From NCBI GenBank assembly GCA_000092065.1, contig CP000593.1: DNA of 64,000 bases. One strand, written 5' to 3'. How positions within the stretch are numbered: the first letter of the stretch is position 1; each line of letters starts with the position of its first letter. Position numbers and translations under genes: made by a program. A model generated the notes under the pieces. It ran no database searches and had not been told where the DNA came from. It saw only the letters and a list, made by a program, of their open reading frames with translations. This document shows positions 4,229-20,623 of this stretch, piece after piece. This DNA comes from Ostreococcus lucimarinus (Eukaryota).

Positions 4229-7200
4229 ATGAGTGAAGTCGCGTCGCCGCCGGGTGATGCAAACACCCGGAAGCGCGGATTCGAACGGACGACCACAGCC
4301 ACTCGATCGCGACGCGCGCCATCGCGCGACGCGACGCGACGCGCGTCCAGCGCGCGAGCACGACGCGCGGTGAAACCGCGCGGTGATCCGAACAACCCGC
4401 GGTGCGCGACGCGCGACCGAGCGATCGGTGCGCGGCGTCGACGGCGATCGGCGAAGACGATCGCGGCGGACGGATCGAATCGGTTTTTCGAGACGCGCGC
4501 GCCGCGGGCGATCGAGGCGCGGAAGACGGACGGGATGGCGCGGACGGCGACGCGCGCGGTGAGGACGACGACGACGGGGGGGGGGCGGAGGCGCGGAAGC
4601 GCGGTGAGACGACGCGGGGGGACGCGGGGACGCGCGAGCGCGAACGCGGCGGATGAGACGACGGCGCGCGCGGACGCGGCGGCGGCGGTGCGAGATCTGG
4701 CGAAGACGCAGTTGAACGGCGCGGATGGGCCGAGGGTGTTTACGGTGCCGGCGGTGCCGGTGGCGGGGGCGCCGGTGAGGGTGTTCGCGGACGTGGAGCG
4801 GGCGGACGCGTTGCGGTCGGCGAGCGAGCGCACGCTCGTCGGCGGGTACAACCAGTGGAAGATTGGGTCGTTCGAGAAGGCGATGGAGCGGGTGGAGGGG
4901 ACGAGCTGGGTGTACGTCGACGTTGACGTCGATGAGCGGGCGTACGAAATGTCTTTCGTGTTCAGGGGTGACGGACAGGCGTATGAAAAAGACGAAGGCC
5001 AAGATTTCGTCGCGGCGGTCGACTTCGGGCCGACGCCGGAGGAGTTTGTGGAAATCCTAAAGGTGGTCGCCATGGAAGACGCGGCGCGCGCGGATGCGAA
5101 CGCCATAGTCGACGCTGAAATGGCGTTCGCCCGCGATGGCGTCGCGGGCGTCGGGGCGACGTTTGAAAAGTACGGGCGCCTCATTTGCAAAACCTCCACG
5201 GGGGACGCGGGCGTCGCCGGTAGCACGGAGCGCGTCTTCTGGAACAAGGCACTGAACCCTATTGGCGGTGACGACGCGGAGAAGCTCATCATGCACGTAG
5301 GATTTAACGGTTGGATGCGTGGCGTTGAGGAGAAGTTGACGCTCGTTCGCGCGACGGGCGAAACGAGAGATGAAAATAACGACTGGTGGGTCGCCGACGT
5401 CCCGATTCGTCCTTCGGCGAGCGTGCTCGACTTTGTCATCTCGGACGAGGACGAAATGGCTTGGGACAACAACGAGAACGCGGACTACCGACTCGCCATG
5501 GACGTCACGTCCGACGAGTCCACGTGGGAGGTCTTGCGAGAGCTCACATTCGAAGAAAAACGCGCGGAGGCGCTGCGAGCTTTGGTTGAGGAAAAGCAGC
5601 GCGTCGCCCGCCGCGCGGAGGAGGCCGCGGCGGCCAAGGCGAAGGCTATTGAAGTGGGCTTGAAGCAGCAGGCGTTCATCATTCACACCGAACCGAAAGT
5701 TCCCGAGGTGGGCAAGCCGCTCAAGGTCTTCTACAACAAGAACAACACCCACCTCAACTGGAGCGAAGAAATTTACTTGACTGGCGGCTTCAACCGTTGG
5801 GCGCACGAAACCGCGGTGGCGCCGATGAAAATGACGCCTCCGACTGAGGGCGAAGAATTTTTCTCCGCCACCGTGCCGAGCGTACCGTCTGACGCGTGGA
5901 TGGTCGACTTCGTCTTCAGCAGTGGCGTTGGCGAAGGTGCGCAGTATGATAACAAGGGCGGACGTGACTATCACATCCCGACGCGCGGAAGCGCGGCGAA
6001 AAAGCCGCCTCTGCACGTCGTGCACGTCGCGGTGGAGATGGCACCCATCGCCAAGGTTGGCGGTTTAGCCGACGTCGTCACCGCCATCGGTCGCGCCATT
6101 CAAGATAATGGACACTTAGTGGAAGTCATTCTTCCGAAGTATCAGTTTTTCAACAACTCAGTCTTGCTCGGCGCCAGAGAATACGAAACGCACTTCGATT
6201 GGGCGGGCACGACGATTCGCGTCGAAAAGTGCAAGGTGGAAGGCTTGCAGTGCTTCTTCATCGAGCCGCAAAACGGCATGTTCCAGACCGACTCGGTGTA
6301 CGGTAGAAACGATGATGCTGAGCGTTTCAACTTCTTCTGCAACGCTGCGCTCGAGTTCCTCCTTCGCACGGCTCGTCAGCCGGATATTCTTCACTGCCAC
6401 GACTGGAGTTCGGCAGAAGTCGCGCGAGCTTACTGGGACCACTACCATCACAATGGTTTGACCAAGCCAAAAGTGGCGTTCACGATTCATAACATGAACT
6501 ACGGGCAAGCCAAGCTCGGTGAGGCCGTGCACCACTCACAGATGACGACCACGGTTTCGCCGTCCTATGCGGGTGAAGTCTCGGGCAGCCCGGTGATCGG
6601 AGGCAACGGCGGCAAGTTTACCGGTATTCGTAACGGCATTGATCCCGACATTTGGGACCCCGAAACGGATGCATTCGTGCCGGTCAAGTATAACGCCGAG
6701 AACGCTGAAAAGGGCAAGGCAGCGGCCAGGGCTGAGCTTCGCAGTCGCCTCGGCATGACTGGTTGGGACGACAAGCCCATCGTCGGCGTCGTCTCTCGTC
6801 TCACCGCTCAAAAAGGTGTACACCTGATCAAGCACGCCGCACATCACACCATCAGTCGTGGTGGGCAATTTGTGTTGCTTGGTAGCGCGCCTGATCCCAA
6901 AATTCAAGGAGATTTCAACGGTCTCGCCAATCAACTCGCCGGCGACAACTCTGGTTTCTTCTTCGCGTTTGACGAGCCGTTGTCGCACCTCATGTACGCT
7001 GGTTGCGACATCATCTTGGTCCCGTCTATGTTCGAGCCGTGTGGTTTGACACAGATGATTTCCATGCGCTACGGTGCTGTACCTGTCGTTCGTGCCACTG
7101 GTGGCCTGCGTGACACCGTCTTCGACGTCGATAATGAAAAAGAGCGCGCGGCTTGGGAAATCGCCGGTTCCACCGACTGGGAAAAAGATGGCGACATGAC

Positions 7201-14522: not shown

Positions 14523-16853
14523 TTACAATTTCGCGCCGCACTCGTAACAAAACTTGAGCGCGACGGCGCCTACGGGATGGTTGAGCGCGCACGCGCACGC
14601 GGGACACGAAATAGACGATGATTTTGCGACGTGGTTTTCCTTGAGCGGATCTCGCGCGTCGGCGGCGACGGCGTCGAACGCGAGCGCCTGGTGACGTTGC
14701 GACTGTTGCGCCGCCGCCGCCGCGCGCGGACGCGCGATGGCGTCGCGCTCGATGATCGAGGACGATGTCGTCGTCGCCGTCGAAGGTTTGCGTATACCGA
14801 GCGCCAAGAAAGTCTTCTCCCTGCGTTCTTCGATCTGTCGCTTGCGTTCGGCGCGACGCTGCGCTCTCGCGTCCTCATCCGTTTCGCTGATGAGCTGACG
14901 GAACGACTTCTCACGCGCCTCGGCGTCTTCGACGACGTTCGATCGACCTATTCTCGGTAGAATGGTCGCCGCCGCGGCGTTTTGATCGAATTGCGACATC
15001 GCGACGTCGATTGATTTCGAAAACGTCTCGATGAGGAACCCTTCGACGAGGGCGTCTTGTTCGCCAACACGACGAGACGTCGGATTTGACACGCTGGATT
15101 CGTTCACGTCCATCAATCTATCCGCGATATCGTCGAATCGTAGCGCGTACGCGTGCGAGGCGGCGGTATTCGTAGCCTTCGTCGCGCCGGGATCGACGCG
15201 AATGCCGACGCGCGTCGCTTCGCCGCCGCGATCCCATCGCCGCGCATACGCGGCGTACGCATCGCCTTCGCTCGATCTGGTCCCACGCGACGCCGCAGCG
15301 ACGGCGGAAAAGATTTGCGAGCTCTTCACGGCACCGATCTCGGGCGAGATCGCTTCGTCGAGCGGTACCAAATTCGGTTCGGCGTCTTTGTACACGTCTT
15401 CGTTCACGTCTTCGACGACGTCTGCGTCTTCCACGATATCCTTGAGCTTGACGCTCTGTCGAGCGCTGAGTAAACCGAGCGCGTGATCCGCTTCGTCTAA
15501 TGCGTTTTGACGTGCGAGTGTGCTCATGTTGTCCATCGCGACGTTGACTTTGTTCAACCCACTCGCGCCCGCGCTCGCGGAGAGACGCCGCAACAATTCG
15601 GGCACCGTCGCGAACGCACGAAGATGAAACTCTAACCCATCGGCACCGCGGCGCACGGGATAGAGCAGCATCGGCGTAGCGTCGAGTTGTCCGTCGCTCG
15701 ACACGTCGCGGTACTGACGCCGCGCCGCCGTGCCGCTCATCCATTGAGTCTTCACTACCATCGCCGGGACGTCGCCTGGCGTCGGCGCGTCCGCGAACGC
15801 CGCGCTCCACGACGAAAACAACGCCTCGCGCACGTCTCGCGACTCCGGGACGTCGTCCATGCGCACGCACAGAGATAACGTCGAGCTCAAGTACACGCTC
15901 GGGATGTCGCGCGCGCGCACAATTTCCACCACGCGCAACGCGCTCGCTCTAGGCGGCGCGGGCGCGGGCGGTCTCGGCGCCGAGCTCGTCGTCGCCGTCG
16001 CATCCATCGTCTCCTCCTCCCCATCATCCGCGCTCGCTCGCGGCTGCAAACGCGTCGCGCGTAACCCGTGAATTTCTACCCTATCTTTCCCGCTCGACGA
16101 CGCGAACGCCAACGTTCCTCGCCACCGCTCGCCCAAATCCACCGTCTCGTCGTCGCCGACGTTTGAAATCGACGCCCCCGCGGCGTCCGCCACCGCTCGC
16201 GCCATCTCCGACCCCCCCCCCTCGCCGCACAGCACCACGCGACACCGCGCGAACGTCCCGAAGCACGCCTTCGCGCGTCGAAACACGCCGTACGCCGCGA
16301 CCATTCCCGTCGTCCACGCCGCGCCGCGTTTAAAATCGCCGACAGCCGCCGCGTTCGGCGCGAACCAAATCACATCCACCCACACCCCTCGCTCGCGATT
16401 CGCTCGCTCCATCGCCCCGCACGCGCTCGCCGCCGCCTCCTCCGCGCTCGCGCCGCGTCCGCCTTCGCCGTTTTCCCGCGACAATTCAATCCTCGCGTCT
16501 CGCAGCGTCTCCCGCAGCGTCTCCGCGTCGACCCCCGTCGTCGTCTCGCTTTCCCGCCCATCGCTCGCGAGCGCGCGCGCGATCCCGGTCCCCCACGCGC
16601 GCGCGACGTATCGCGCTCCCCTCGACGCCGCGCCGAGGCCGTTCGCGCGCAGCGCGTCGTCGTCGTCGTCGTTCGCGCGCGTCGTCCGCGTCGCGCACCC
16701 ATCGTCGTCGTCATCTTCCCCGTCCCGCATCGCGCGTTCGCACGCCGCGACGCCGTCGAGCGCGTCGATCGCGTCCGCGCACCACCGCGCGCTCGCGGCG
16801 CGCGCGTCGAGGTCGCTCGCGGCGTCGCCGACGAGCGCGACGACCAAACGCAT
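14523..16853 (-). CDS. Hypothetical 776-aa protein with a possible vWA/Rossmann-like N-terminal region and a C-terminal C4 zinc ribbon
   Basis: Long ORF with non-repetitive composition. The N-terminus [15 protein letters not shown]...[10 protein letters not shown] is Rossmann-like. The C-terminus has a CPACAC...(16 residues)...CYEC zinc ribbon. I cannot name a family. Confidence 0.5.
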
Positions 16854-16922
16854 CGCGGCGCGGCGACGAATGAAGTCGAAAATTCGTCACAACGCCGCGT
16901 CGCGCGGTGCGGCGCGCGCGCG
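16854..16922. promoter_or_regulatory. 69-bp divergent intergenic region between the 776-aa hypothetical gene and the bZIP gene
   Basis: Follows from the two start-codon positions. Confidence 0.4.
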
Positions 16923-17390
16923 ATGTCGCCGCGCTCGAGCGCGATGACGCCGACGCCCGGTAAGCACCGACGGTCGCTGAGCACGCCCGTGGACGTGCTG
17001 GCGTCGAGCGCGCTGCAACGGGCGCTCGATCGCGCGCGGGACCGACACGGCGGCGACGACGCGCCGAGCCGAAGCGATTCGCTGTTCGGGGACGAGGACG
17101 CGATGGCGCACGCGATGGCGATCGATTTGGACGACGCGCCGCTGGACGTGCGAGAGCTGGCGATGCAGGATCCGAAGCGAGCGAAGAGGATTTTGGCCAA
17201 CCGCCTGAGCGCGGCGCGGAGCAAGGAGCGAAAGACGCGATACGTCAAGGGGTTGGAAAAGAAACTGAACGAGCTGGAGGAGTGCGAGAGGACGTTGATT
17301 TTGGAGAGAGAAAGAATGGCGACGGCGGTGGCGACGCTGGCGGCGGAGAATAGCGCGTTGCAGATGATGATGGGGACGCCGGCGCGGTGA
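16923..17390 (+). CDS. Plant-type bZIP transcription factor
   Basis: Basic region [20 protein letters not shown] (the plant N-x7-R signature [16 protein letters not shown]), followed by a heptad leucine zipper ([36 protein letters not shown]). Confidence 0.8.
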
Positions 17391-17526
17391 GACAATCGGA
17401 GGGGAACGTCGAGACGAGGGGAATTTCGATGAAGAAATGTAATTTTACTGCAAGTGTACCGTACTGGACGACGCGCGTAAGAGCTAAGATGCGTTCTAAG
17501 CGCTCGCGGCGAGAGCGTGCGCGCGA

Positions 17527-18459
17527 TCATCCAAAGTGGCTAAAAAATTCGTAATCTGGGTGCACCGTCTTGCGCATGCGAAGCCAGGTGTAGGCGCCGT
17601 CCATGAGCTTGTTCATCCAGTCAGTGACGTCGTCGTTCGCGGCCCAGACGTCGCCTTGCATTTTGTACATCGATAATCCGAACGGGCGAAGGATGTGTGC
17701 GTGCGGTGCGGCGGTCGATCCGCCGCCCGCGCCCGCGTCGTCCGACGCAGACGCCCGCTCCTTCGCTCGCGCGGCGCGCAGCGCGAGCAAATCTTCCGAT
17801 AACATCGTCATCTCCGGCGGCAACGGACACGCGATGTCACCATCGCACAATTCTCCCGCGTACAACGCGTGATAGGTCAAGAAACACCCCTGCACGTCGT
17901 GTAACATCGTCCCTTGCGGTATGCGATAAATCGGATACCACGCCACGCTCATCCAACTACTCGGCGCCAAGTCCGCGCTCGTCATCGTCCTCAACTCCGC
18001 CCGCTCATCTAGTATCAAATCAATTATCTCTCGAAACGGCGCTCTCGAGTACGGCGACGCCTTTTCAAAGAATTCATAAATCAATCTCGTCCCCGTTCCG
18101 ACTCGTCTTCGTCTCGCGCCGTCCTCGCCGTCCTCGCCGTCCTCGCCGTCCCCGCGCACGAACAACTGCATTCCGGACAAAAACGGCACGTAATACTGCG
18201 ACACGCACGGTTGGCCGTCTTGCAAGCGCAGCGGGACCTCGGCGCCGAACGCGCTCGGCTCGGTAAACGCGTCCCAAAGCTCGGATAAGGCGAAATCTCG
18301 ACTCGACTCGGCGCGCGACGAGAAAACGGGCGCGGACGACGCGACGAAGGCTTCGATGTTCGCCATCTCGTGCGTCGACGCGAGGTCGAGCGCGGGAGGC
18401 GCGCCGGCGTCGACGCGCGCGGCGGGCGTGCGCGGGACGTCCGCGTCGGGGGCGGACAT
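17527..18459 (-). CDS. DUF789 family protein (plant-lineage protein of unknown function)
   Basis: Has the SWMSVAWYPIYRIP signature and the C-terminal HPDYEFF motif typical of DUF789. Contains a short (GED)3 repeat. Confidence 0.7.
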   Translation of the reverse strand: MSAPDADVPRTPAARVDAGAPPALDLASTHEMANIEAFVASSAPVFSSRAESSRDFALSELWDAFTEPSAFGAEVPLRLQDGQPCVSQYYVPFLSGMQLFVRGDGEDGEDGEDGARRRRVGTGTRLIYEFFEKASPYSRAPFREIIDLILDERAELRTMTSADLAPSSWMSVAWYPIYRIPQGTMLHDVQGCFLTYHALYAGELCDGDIACPLPPEMTMLSEDLLALRAARAKERASASDDAGAGGGSTAAPHAHILRPFGLSMYKMQGDVWAANDDVTDWMNKLMDGAYTWLRMRKTVHPDYEFFSHFG

Positions 18460-18580: not shown

Positions 18581-19522
18581 TCACGAAGACGCGGCGGCGG
18601 TCGCGACGGCGGCGTTCGGGGCGAGGAGAAGCCTGACTTTGGCGTACGAGCTCGCCGCGCGCACGAGAAACGAGGCGACGCGCAAGAGTTTCGGTAATCC
18701 GCTCGTCACGCCTTCCCTGCGCTCTTCGCGCCCGGCCCAGATGCGAACCTCGCTGTGGGCGACGAGCAAGGCGAGATTTCCCGCGCTGCTCGCGCTCCGC
18801 GGCAGGGATACGCCCTTTCGTCGTAACAACGCGTTCGCCGCGCTCTGAATCCACGCGCGCGAGTACTCGTTCAACCGATCCCTCGCTCGGAACGAAAACC
18901 AAAACCTCGGCCCGCGTCGCGCCTCCTTGCTCCAAATTTTCGATTCGTACGTGTAATTCGCGTGACACACCCTGCACTGCGTCTCGCGCGCGCCGCGCGT
19001 TTGATAACTCACGCGCTGCCATCGTCGTAGGCACCTCTTGTGCACGTACGCCTGCGACCCCGCGCACGCGCACGGCTCGATCAGCGTCCCACACTCGGAC
19101 CCCGTGAAACAAAACCTGCACGTCCCCTCCGACGCCTTCTTCGCCGACGCGACGCTCGGCGACGTCTCCACCGCCGCCGTCGCCGTCGTCCCGCTCGTCG
19201 TCCCGCTCGTCGTCCCGCTCGCCGTCCCGCTCGCCGCGCTCGCCAGCTCCCTCGCGCTCGCGCTCCTCGACAGCCGTCCCATCGCCGCGCGTCCGCTCGG
19301 CGACATCCGACGCGCGTTTACCTCTTCCGCACCGCGCGCCGGCGTCGCGCTCGCATCGCTCGCGTCGCTCTCGTCGTCGTCGTCGTCCTCGCGCGCCTCC
19401 TCGTCGTCGCTCGAGCTCGTCTCCGCCTCGCTCGCGCTCGCGCGCGCGCGCGCCTCGGCCTCGTTCGCGCGTCGGTGCGCCTCGAGCAGGGCGAGCCCGG
19501 TGAGAATCACGGGCGAGCTCAT
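18581..19522 (-). CDS. RING-CH (MARCH-type, C4HC3) zinc-finger protein, a putative E3 ubiquitin ligase
   Basis: The RING-CH/RINGv domain reads CRFCFTGSECGTLIEPCACAGSQAYVHKRCLRRWQRV...CRVCHANY. Start chosen at MSSPVILTGL (ATG 19522..19520). The upstream part of the stop-to-stop ORF is an R-rich antisense artefact over the WOX gene. Confidence 0.7.
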   Translation of the reverse strand: MSSPVILTGLALLEAHRRANEAEARARASASEAETSSSDDEEAREDDDDDESDASDASATPARGAEEVNARRMSPSGRAAMGRLSRSASARELASAASGTASGTTSGTTSGTTATAAVETSPSVASAKKASEGTCRFCFTGSECGTLIEPCACAGSQAYVHKRCLRRWQRVSYQTRGARETQCRVCHANYTYESKIWSKEARRGPRFWFSFRARDRLNEYSRAWIQSAANALLRRKGVSLPRSASSAGNLALLVAHSEVRIWAGREERREGVTSGLPKLLRVASFLVRAASSYAKVRLLLAPNAAVATAAASS

Positions 19523-19816
19523 CGCCGACGCGCGCGGCGTCGCGCTCTGCCGCGCGCGTCCGCGTCGCCGCGAAACCGAAAGGTCGAGGCGAAGGGTCGT
19601 TGGCGTCGACCGCGCGCTTCGGCGCGTCGCGCGCGCGCGCGAGCGGCGCCGACCGCCGCGACGCGCGATCGATCGTCGGTTCGCGCGCGCGGGCGCGCGG
19701 CGGCGCGCGGCGCGCGGGCGCGGCGTCGACGATCGATCGCGACGGCTCGGGACACGGCGACGCGACGACGCGCGAGGACGACCGCGCGAGCGACGGCGCG
19801 CGCGAGGACGACGGCG

Positions 19817-20623
19817 ATGGACGGCGGTGAAGTCGAGGCGGCGGCGCGCGCGCGCGAGGGCGACGCCGCGGGCGAGGCGGGACGCGACGGCGACGACGAG
19901 GGCGCGAAGGCGATGAACGCGACGACGACGACGACGGCGACGACGGGCGGCGACGACGACGACGGCGCGACGGCGAACGCGACGGCGGAGGACGCGCGCG
20001 CGATGCCGCACAACGCGGCGACGGTGACGCGGCCGGGAGAGGGGAAGGCGCCCCCGCGCGGGGCGGCGGTGCACATGACGGAGCGACAGTTGTACGCGTT
20101 TCGGCAGCAGATCGCGGCGTACGCGCACATATGTCAACAGTTGTTGCAGATAACGACGGTGAGCGCGACGCAACAGACGCCGAGACAGCGTGAGGCGAGG
20201 TACGAGGTGCCGGGATCGGCGGGCGCGCACGCGGGGGCGAACGCGAGCGCGCAGGCGTTCGCGGCGATGGCGGCGAGCGGGACGGCGAACGCGCAGCAGA
20301 GAAAGACGTACGAGGAGGGACAGCGCGTCGGACGCGGGGAAGATAAGGGCGTGCGAGGACCGAGATGGAGTGGAACGCCGGATCAGTACAAGATTTTGGA
20401 GGATTTGTTCTTGGCGGGCGAGCAACCGCCCGTGCGAGCGAGATTGACGGAGATTACGAAGCGGCTGCAAGAACACGGGCCCATTCAAGAACACAACGTG
20501 TACAATTGGTTTCAAAACCGACGGAGCAGGGAAAAGAAAAGGTTGGCGGAAGAACGCGCGTCGAACGATGCGGCGCTCGACAATCAACCGCTCGCGTCGC
20601 GGTACGGCGTGGGCGAACGATGA
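19817..20623 (+). CDS. WOX-family (WUSCHEL-related) homeobox transcription factor
   Basis: The homeodomain RWSGTPDQYKILEDLFLAGEQPP...EITKRLQEHGPIQEHNVYNWFQNRRSREKK carries the WOX-specific YNWFQNRRSR and the typical loop insertion. Upstream is a QLQ-like motif (ERQLYAFRQQIAAYAHICQQLL). Start taken at MDGGEVEA (ATG 19817); the real start could be elsewhere in the overlap. Confidence 0.75.
   Translation: MDGGEVEAAARAREGDAAGEAGRDGDDEGAKAMNATTTTTATTGGDDDDGATANATAEDARAMPHNAATVTRPGEGKAPPRGAAVHMTERQLYAFRQQIAAYAHICQQLLQITTVSATQQTPRQREARYEVPGSAGAHAGANASAQAFAAMAASGTANAQQRKTYEEGQRVGRGEDKGVRGPRWSGTPDQYKILEDLFLAGEQPPVRARLTEITKRLQEHGPIQEHNVYNWFQNRRSREKKRLAEERASNDAALDNQPLASRYGVGER

Follow-up and report, generated by a model that had tools for sequence, protein, structure and literature searches.

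A head-to-head RING-CH and WOX13-clade WOX gene pair under two long overlapping open reading frames in Ostreococcus lucimarinus

Introduction

A single WOX gene is present in each Ostreococcus genome, that of O. tauri and that of O. lucimarinus (Deveaux et al. 2008, PMC2584047). The O. tauri protein, OtWOX, falls phylogenetically within the WOX13 group and carries the WOX13 motif, and its gene is constitutively expressed as judged by reverse-transcription PCR (PMC2584047). This motif, the 39-amino acid WOX13 MOG of Deveaux 2008, was renamed T1WOX by Wu 2019, and nearly every WOX protein of the ancient clade, OtWOX among them, is reported to carry it (PMC2584047, PMC6788696). The ancient clade is also marked by the homeodomain signature NVYNWFQNR, as opposed to NVFYWFQNR or NVFYWFQNH (PMC6788696). 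Ancient-clade WOX proteins are devoid of the WUS-box and the EAR motif that explain the action of modern WOX proteins. Here, the WOX locus at positions 18,581 to 20,623 of a 64,000-nucleotide stretch of O. lucimarinus DNA (contig CP000593.1; the whole stretch is referred to as the window) is analyzed. A preliminary description had proposed that a WOX homeobox gene with a QLQ-like motif is paired divergently with a RING-CH gene at this locus, and that it is buried under long antisense open reading frames (ORFs).

Results

Two head-to-head genes

The locus is assigned with high confidence to a pair of nuclear genes, both ordinary in kind, from an Ostreococcus lucimarinus-like alga: a minus-strand RING-CH gene and a plus-strand gene encoding the single WOX protein of the WOX13 (T1) clade. 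They are arranged head to head with 294 bp between them. The 668-codon and 527-codon ORFs that overlap them are not genes but compositional artefacts. The features are as follows.

19817..20623, plus strand: WOX gene (WOX13, T1 or ancient clade), 268 amino acids plus stop, intron-free (Pfam, homologues, gene callers)
18581..19522, minus strand: RING-CH (RINGv) gene, 313 amino acids plus stop (Pfam RINGv, orthologues)
19523..19816, no strand: spacer between the two start codons, 294 bp, 81% G+C
20054..20173, plus strand: WOX13 MOG / T1WOX motif, residues 80-119 (profile search, conservation, AlphaFold2, hhalign)
20069..20134, plus strand: QLQ helix-A-like core, residues 85-106 of WOX (hhalign)
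20354..20539, plus strand: WOX-type homeodomain with the helix-3 signature NVYNWFQNR, residues 180-241 (Pfam, phmmer, Foldseek)
18965..19120, minus strand: RING-CH zinc finger, residues 135-186 (Pfam and C4HC3 pattern)
19523..20587, minus strand: non-coding upstream extension of the 668-codon ORF, an antisense shadow of WOX plus spacer
19040..19816, plus strand: non-coding upstream extension of the 527-codon ORF, an antisense shadow of RING-CH plus spacer

The ORF listing reproduced both long frames and their near-complete overlap exactly as first described, 668 codons at 18581..20587 on the minus strand and 527 codons at 19040..20623 on the plus strand, and the strings YNWFQNRRSREKK and ERQLYAFRQQIAAYAHICQQLL quoted in that description are both present. 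The G+C content across ~ 18.5–20.7 kb is 58–79%. Pfam places the Homeodomain family (PF00046; E = 2.1e-11; score 43.9 bits, cut-off 22.9 bits) solely in the last part of the 527-codon ORF, at residues 180–241 of the 268-residue protein, and RINGv (PF12906; E = 1.4e-10; score 41.6 bits, cut-off 21.6 bits) solely in the last part of the 668-codon ORF, at residues 135–186 of the 313-residue protein, where a pattern search also locates the C4HC3 arrangement. The upstream extensions of the two ORFs match no Pfam family. The divergent pairing with a RING-CH gene was correctly recognized in the preliminary description, as was the principle that domain content rather than ORF length delimits the genes. 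The limits that it gave for both genes are also right; gene callers set the same limits for WOX and RING-CH in relatives, and the RING-CH orthologues of these relatives are 268–322 amino acids long.

The 527-codon ORF opens with GTG and its first in-frame ATG is at 19817, whereas the RING-CH protein starts at the ATG at 19522. WOX relatives of 272 amino acids begin four codons upstream (MTTAMDG); the same ATG reads AGG in the window (19805–19819), hence translation of the window WOX must start at 19817. The spacer between the two start codons is filled with CG-rich low-complexity repeats and, when aligned with L001 (the closest relative, 92% DNA identity), is the least conserved stretch, with 11–23 mismatches per 100 bp. 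It presumably serves as a shared bidirectional promoter and contains the 5′ untranslated regions. The gene order DUF789 – RINGv(−) – WOX(+) – TPR(−) – DUF7148 – OTU is preserved in related marine contigs, and the RINGv/WOX/TPR core is also preserved in far more distant relatives at 40–50% identity.

Origin of the long overlapping ORFs

Each long ORF shares its codon register exactly with the real gene of the opposite strand, and consequently antisense stops can arise only from sense TTA, CTA or TCA codons. None of the 11 Leu and 8 Ser codons of the WOX gene is of these three kinds. The three that occur in the RING-CH gene all lie upstream of 19040, hence the start of the 527-codon ORF at that position, just after the RING-CH TTA/CTA codons. 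Each long ORF is a real gene that continues through the stop-poor spacer and then reads its neighbor in reverse complement, still in register. When synonymous codons were drawn from local codon usage, the antisense frame of WOX was stop-free in 24.5% of the resamplings, and shuffling left the spacer stop-free in 50% of cases. The joint probability of an open antisense frame and an open spacer is 12.5% (~ 1 in 8), which makes the overlap unremarkable. Purines predominate on the sense strand (A+G 64%, T 9.5%). The ORFs under which the WOX gene was said to be buried do exist, but they reflect a trivial effect of register and GC composition.

The coding strands were evaluated from the distribution of differences over codon positions 1/2/3, a test that is decisive only in conserved blocks compared with more distant relatives. 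The WOX motif block gave 1/2/9 (L007), 7/3/15 (L005) and 11/7/24 (L006), and RING-CH gave 43/25/75 and 51/36/86; whole-gene comparisons are diluted by the disordered N-termini. Because the substitutions concentrate at codon position 3, the comparison indicates purifying selection on the plus frame of WOX and on the minus frame of RING-CH. An alternative interpretation is that a single 668-residue minus-strand gene spans 18581–20587, or that the real WOX protein is the product of the whole 527-codon plus-strand ORF. Both ORFs are real stop-free frames and relatives also possess long antisense stop-free runs, as this alternative would have it. Nonetheless, in an antisense frame the first codon position would appear as the most variable, the extensions carry no Pfam family, and the extension of the plus-strand ORF has GTG as its first codon and reads RING-CH in reverse complement. 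The long frame of L007 breaks at the spacer, and in L007, L004 and L005 the frames break or shift there. Together with the in-register codons and the ~ 12% expectation from resampling, these results led to rejection of the single long minus-strand gene, and the probability that either long ORF is a gene is considered negligible.

One of the antisense runs in relatives is of a different kind. In L006, which has 50% G+C, a 329-codon stop-free antisense run lies over WOX at 4822–5808 (−) and is out of register. It is probably explained by the purine-rich (Glu/Lys-rich) sense strand.

The WOX protein and its clade

The assignment of a WOX homeobox gene, also made in the preliminary description, is substantiated by the Pfam match and by structural homologues. 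A phmmer search of the Protein Data Bank (PDB) identified STENOFOLIA (6WIG, E = 2.7e-12) and WUSCHEL (6RY3, E = 1e-10) as the best solved relatives, and the next homeobox class, DUX4, followed at 5e-4, eight orders of magnitude worse. Homeodomain sequence identity to these two proteins is 34–39%; the STENOFOLIA alignment is gapless over 63 residues and that of WUSCHEL requires a single one-residue gap. The AlphaFold2 model contains the three homeodomain helices with a predicted local distance difference test (pLDDT) score of ~ 90, and the top 11 Foldseek matches to this model are all STENOFOLIA (STF) or WUSCHEL (WUS) homeodomains, mostly with TMt of 0.85–0.91 and a root-mean-square deviation of ~ 1 Å. 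Helix 3, NVYNWFQNRRSR at residues 227–238, carries the ancient-clade signature NVYNWFQNR. Pattern searches showed that the WUS-box (TLxLFP) and the EAR motif are absent from the protein, as are the angiosperm-specific YxDpl and ESExE motifs. By its sequence features, the homeodomain is classified as WOX-type of the ancient WOX13 (T1) clade.

Sixty-eight homologues were collected, and all but two (P0005 and P0064) have a precomputed Homeodomain match. The window protein differs by 2 amino acids from P0110, which occurs on 109 contigs. Its 90% identity cluster includes UniRef A0A7R9T560 of Ostreococcus sp. 'lucimarinus', and the members are 236, 254, 268 or 272 amino acids long. GAC / GCGACGACG repeats at 19881–19976 (+) encode a Thr/Asp-rich disordered N-terminus that contains indels relative to L001. 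One WOX gene per Ostreococcus genome (PMC2584047) agrees with the preliminary description, in which Mamiellophyceae are reported to carry a single ancestral member.

The WOX13 motif

The stretch that was first described as QLQ-like is no unusual addition to the protein. It corresponds, as judged from profile matches and conservation, to the published WOX13 MOG / T1WOX motif, which the preliminary description had missed. Its segment AAVHMTERQLYAFRQQIAAYAHICQQLLQ is almost invariant in 24 relatives and is more conserved than the homeodomain. A profile restricted to the motif yielded 26 matches among 1.84 billion representative proteins, nearly all of which are WOX proteins or short motif-only fragments, ranging from Mamiellophyceae-like algae to WOX13-like proteins of land-plant/streptophyte type (P0080, P0082, P0083, P0085 and P0086). 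The land-plant-like proteins have the sequence VMTEEQLE.LRRQI.VYATICQQLVEMH upstream of a homeodomain that ends in NVYNWFQN. The 32 motif-profile matches within the 2162-residue P0069 were discarded as a repeat artefact, and the other exceptions are repeat or chance matches. In the AlphaFold2 model the motif forms a single continuous helix, residues 89–118, with pLDDT of ~ 92.

Comparison of the motif with the QLQ domain

The QLQ similarity proposed in the preliminary description received no support from plain profile search, an outcome that this description had itself listed as refuting. Pfam QLQ (PF08880, cut-off 23.8 bits) gave no match on the full WOX protein, and the bare 30-mer scored 13.3 bits (E = 0.066) over profile positions 1–20 of 35. 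Full WOX13-like relatives score 12–18 bits. Nonetheless, among 24,736 Pfam families QLQ was the only one that recurred, matching 12 of the 16 motif segments with a best E of 7.5e-5. The only member of the set that passes the QLQ cut-off, at 27.3 bits, is P0073, a 216-residue protein with two tandem WOX13 motifs and no homeodomain.

Profile–profile comparison with hhalign employed a QLQ alignment built from PF08880-annotated proteins and the BRG1 QLQ (core residues 171–207 checked against PDB entries; of the few flanking residues, the C-terminal ones agree with P0107). The motif aligned with QLQ with 89.7% probability, P = 1.8e-6 and a score of 28.8 over 22 of 40 columns. By comparison, the mean over 300 column shuffles was 8.7 ± 1.9 and the highest shuffle score 16.3; reversing the profile gave 8.2, and unrelated helical profiles used as negative controls scored 5.6–15.3. 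The accepted SNF2-type and GRF-type QLQ subfamilies score 36.2 against one another, and the motif scores 27.6 against the former and 16.0 against the latter. The match is confined to the first half of the domain (93.9%), with 0.1% and a score of 4.5 for the second half and 19% for the global alignment. The motif contains no prolines, and the Pro-x-Pro turn and helix B of QLQ are absent while the helix continues. What stood of the original claim is thus helix A. On these alignments, the resemblance is best described as a real half-domain similarity that involves helix A only.

Within helix A, residues Q91, F95 (Leu in other lineages), Q98 and Y102 align with Q176, L180, Q183 and Y187 of BRG1, and Q91, Q98 and Y102 are invariant from Mamiellophyceae-like algae to land-plant-like WOX13 proteins. 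Mutation of BRG1 Q176/Q183 abolishes SS18 binding, and mutation of the equivalent Snf2 Q252/Q259 likewise abolishes Snf11 binding (PMC9117659). Searching the PDB with the HMMER motif profile returned only chance matches (von Willebrand factor, ARAC7) and neither SMARCA4 nor Snf2, and the search of 1.84 billion sequences retrieved no QLQ protein. In the PDB, a GRF-type QLQ query reached only the BRG1 QLQ, with a total of 16.5 bits and with 10.3 bits over the QLQ stretch itself. Genuine QLQ subfamilies thus match each other only weakly. In the literature library searched, no paper names QLQ together with WOX13.

Two explanations of the resemblance were considered. According to the first, it is convergent: the motif would be a generic Gln-rich amphipathic helix that serves dimerization, another cofactor or intramolecular control of the homeodomain. 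This explanation is judged probable. Only half a domain matches, no reciprocal HMMER match is obtained, and the motif extends as a conserved helix (ICQQLLQ.T/H) for which QLQ has no counterpart. Against convergence, the Pfam and hhalign signals are specific to QLQ among all Pfam families and relative to the controls, and the two functional Gln residues and the Tyr are conserved exactly at the QLQ spacing. According to the second explanation, the WOX13 motif is a true but divergent, stripped-down QLQ helix A that binds the SNH domain of an SSXT/GIF-like protein and thereby couples the ancestral WOX to SWI/SNF. The same QLQ-specific signals, including P0073, and the alignment of the invariant Q91/Q98 with the SS18-binding glutamines of BRG1 speak for it, as does the occurrence of an SSXT protein in O. 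tauri. However, the window protein falls under the Pfam cut-off, the second half of QLQ is replaced by a continuous helix, the motif profile retrieves no QLQ protein, and the match spans just ~ 22 helical residues. A true QLQ helix A that binds SNH is therefore offered as a tentative and rather unlikely explanation.

The O. tauri SSXT protein, P0219, comprises 83 amino acids, with an SSXT match at E = 2.6e-24 and 68% identity to the plant GIF1 SNH domain. Related marine contigs, probably from Mamiellophyceae, encode similar small SNH-only SSXT proteins (P0220 and P0229–P0248). Together with P0219, these proteins are 80–96 amino acids long, share 66–70% identity with the GIF1 SNH domain and resemble animal SS18L2.

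The RING-CH protein and neighboring genes

Outside its C4HC3 finger, the RING-CH protein matches no family. It is presumed to be an E3 ubiquitin ligase. A 12-bp tandem repeat of 4.2 copies at 19184–19233 (−) lies in its coding sequence and encodes TSGT repeats; because L001, at 82% identity, has one unit fewer, the repeat varies in length while the frame is kept, as an in-frame polymorphism.

RING-CH and WOX are ~ 2.6 kb apart in L005 (2359–5000), a more distant relative. The ORFs called in between, of 92 and 560 amino acids, have no Pfam match, and the 2.6-kb stretch represents either an insertion or spurious GC-rich ORFs. Beyond the RING-CH gene in the window, a DUF789 gene occupies 17527..18459 (−). 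An Arg-rich ORF of 386 codons at 16370–17530 (−), in a stretch of 72–75% G+C (16250–17250) that adjoins the DUF789 gene, looks like another compositional ORF. In this neighborhood, however, relatives have a bZIP-like gene and a 774-residue protein of unknown family.

Discussion

The assignment of two head-to-head genes is carried by domain content, by gene limits and order shared with relatives and by the codon-position pattern. Some points weigh against it or against its details. The codon-position comparison with L001 is uninformative, with too few substitutions, clustered in repeats; the assignment of strands is comparative in nature; and the SNH/SSXT partner of the motif is hypothetical.

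The WOX protein is predicted to comprise a disordered, acidic, Thr-rich N-terminus, the long conserved helix of the motif, a disordered linker and the WOX-type homeodomain. By analogy with WUS and STF, the homeodomain would bind DNA. The motif helix may provide a docking site for another protein. Its likeness to the QLQ helix A of SWI/SNF ATPases makes an SNH/SSXT protein the most specific guess for such a partner, put forward as a hypothesis only.

The WOX gene itself adds nothing new, since the one WOX of Ostreococcus has been known, together with its WOX13 motif, from a description of 2008. The ORF overlap calls for caution in the annotation of GC-rich genomes. The link to QLQ is a testable side lead. 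If the motif were a QLQ-type, SNH-binding helix, ancient-clade WOX proteins would recruit SWI/SNF through GIF/SS18, as GRFs do. This would supply a concrete mechanism and would connect WOX13 with GRF–GIF, both of them families of factors in plant regeneration.

Comparison with known systems places the locus as follows. OtWOX and the O. lucimarinus WOX share with the window protein the WOX-type homeodomain, the NVYNWFQNR signature, the upstream WOX13 MOG motif, the intron-free gene and the single copy. There is no essential difference from the WOX13 orthologous group (AtWOX13, AtWOX10 and AtWOX14), which likewise lacks the WUS-box and EAR motif; the window protein departs from this group in having neither YxDpl nor ESExE and in an N-terminal low-complexity tract that varies in length between strains. 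The WUSCHEL and STENOFOLIA homeodomains (6RY3 and 6WIG) share the same three-helix fold, but these proteins belong to the modern clade (NVFYWFQNH) and possess a WUS-box, and in WUS also an EAR motif, whereas the window WOX has neither. On the opposite strand, the RING-CH protein has the same C4HC3 zinc finger as the MARCH / RING-CH (RINGv) E3 ligases. The QLQ domains of BRG1, Snf2 and the GRFs have in common with the WOX motif the helix A pattern [FM]-T/N-x-x-Q-L-x-x-[LF]-R-x-Q-I-x-x-Y, in which the SNH-contacting Gln residues are 7 apart. The WOX motif is nearer to the SNF2-type than to the GRF-type QLQ, and it is found in a homeodomain protein, whereas QLQ is found together with an ATPase or a WRC domain.

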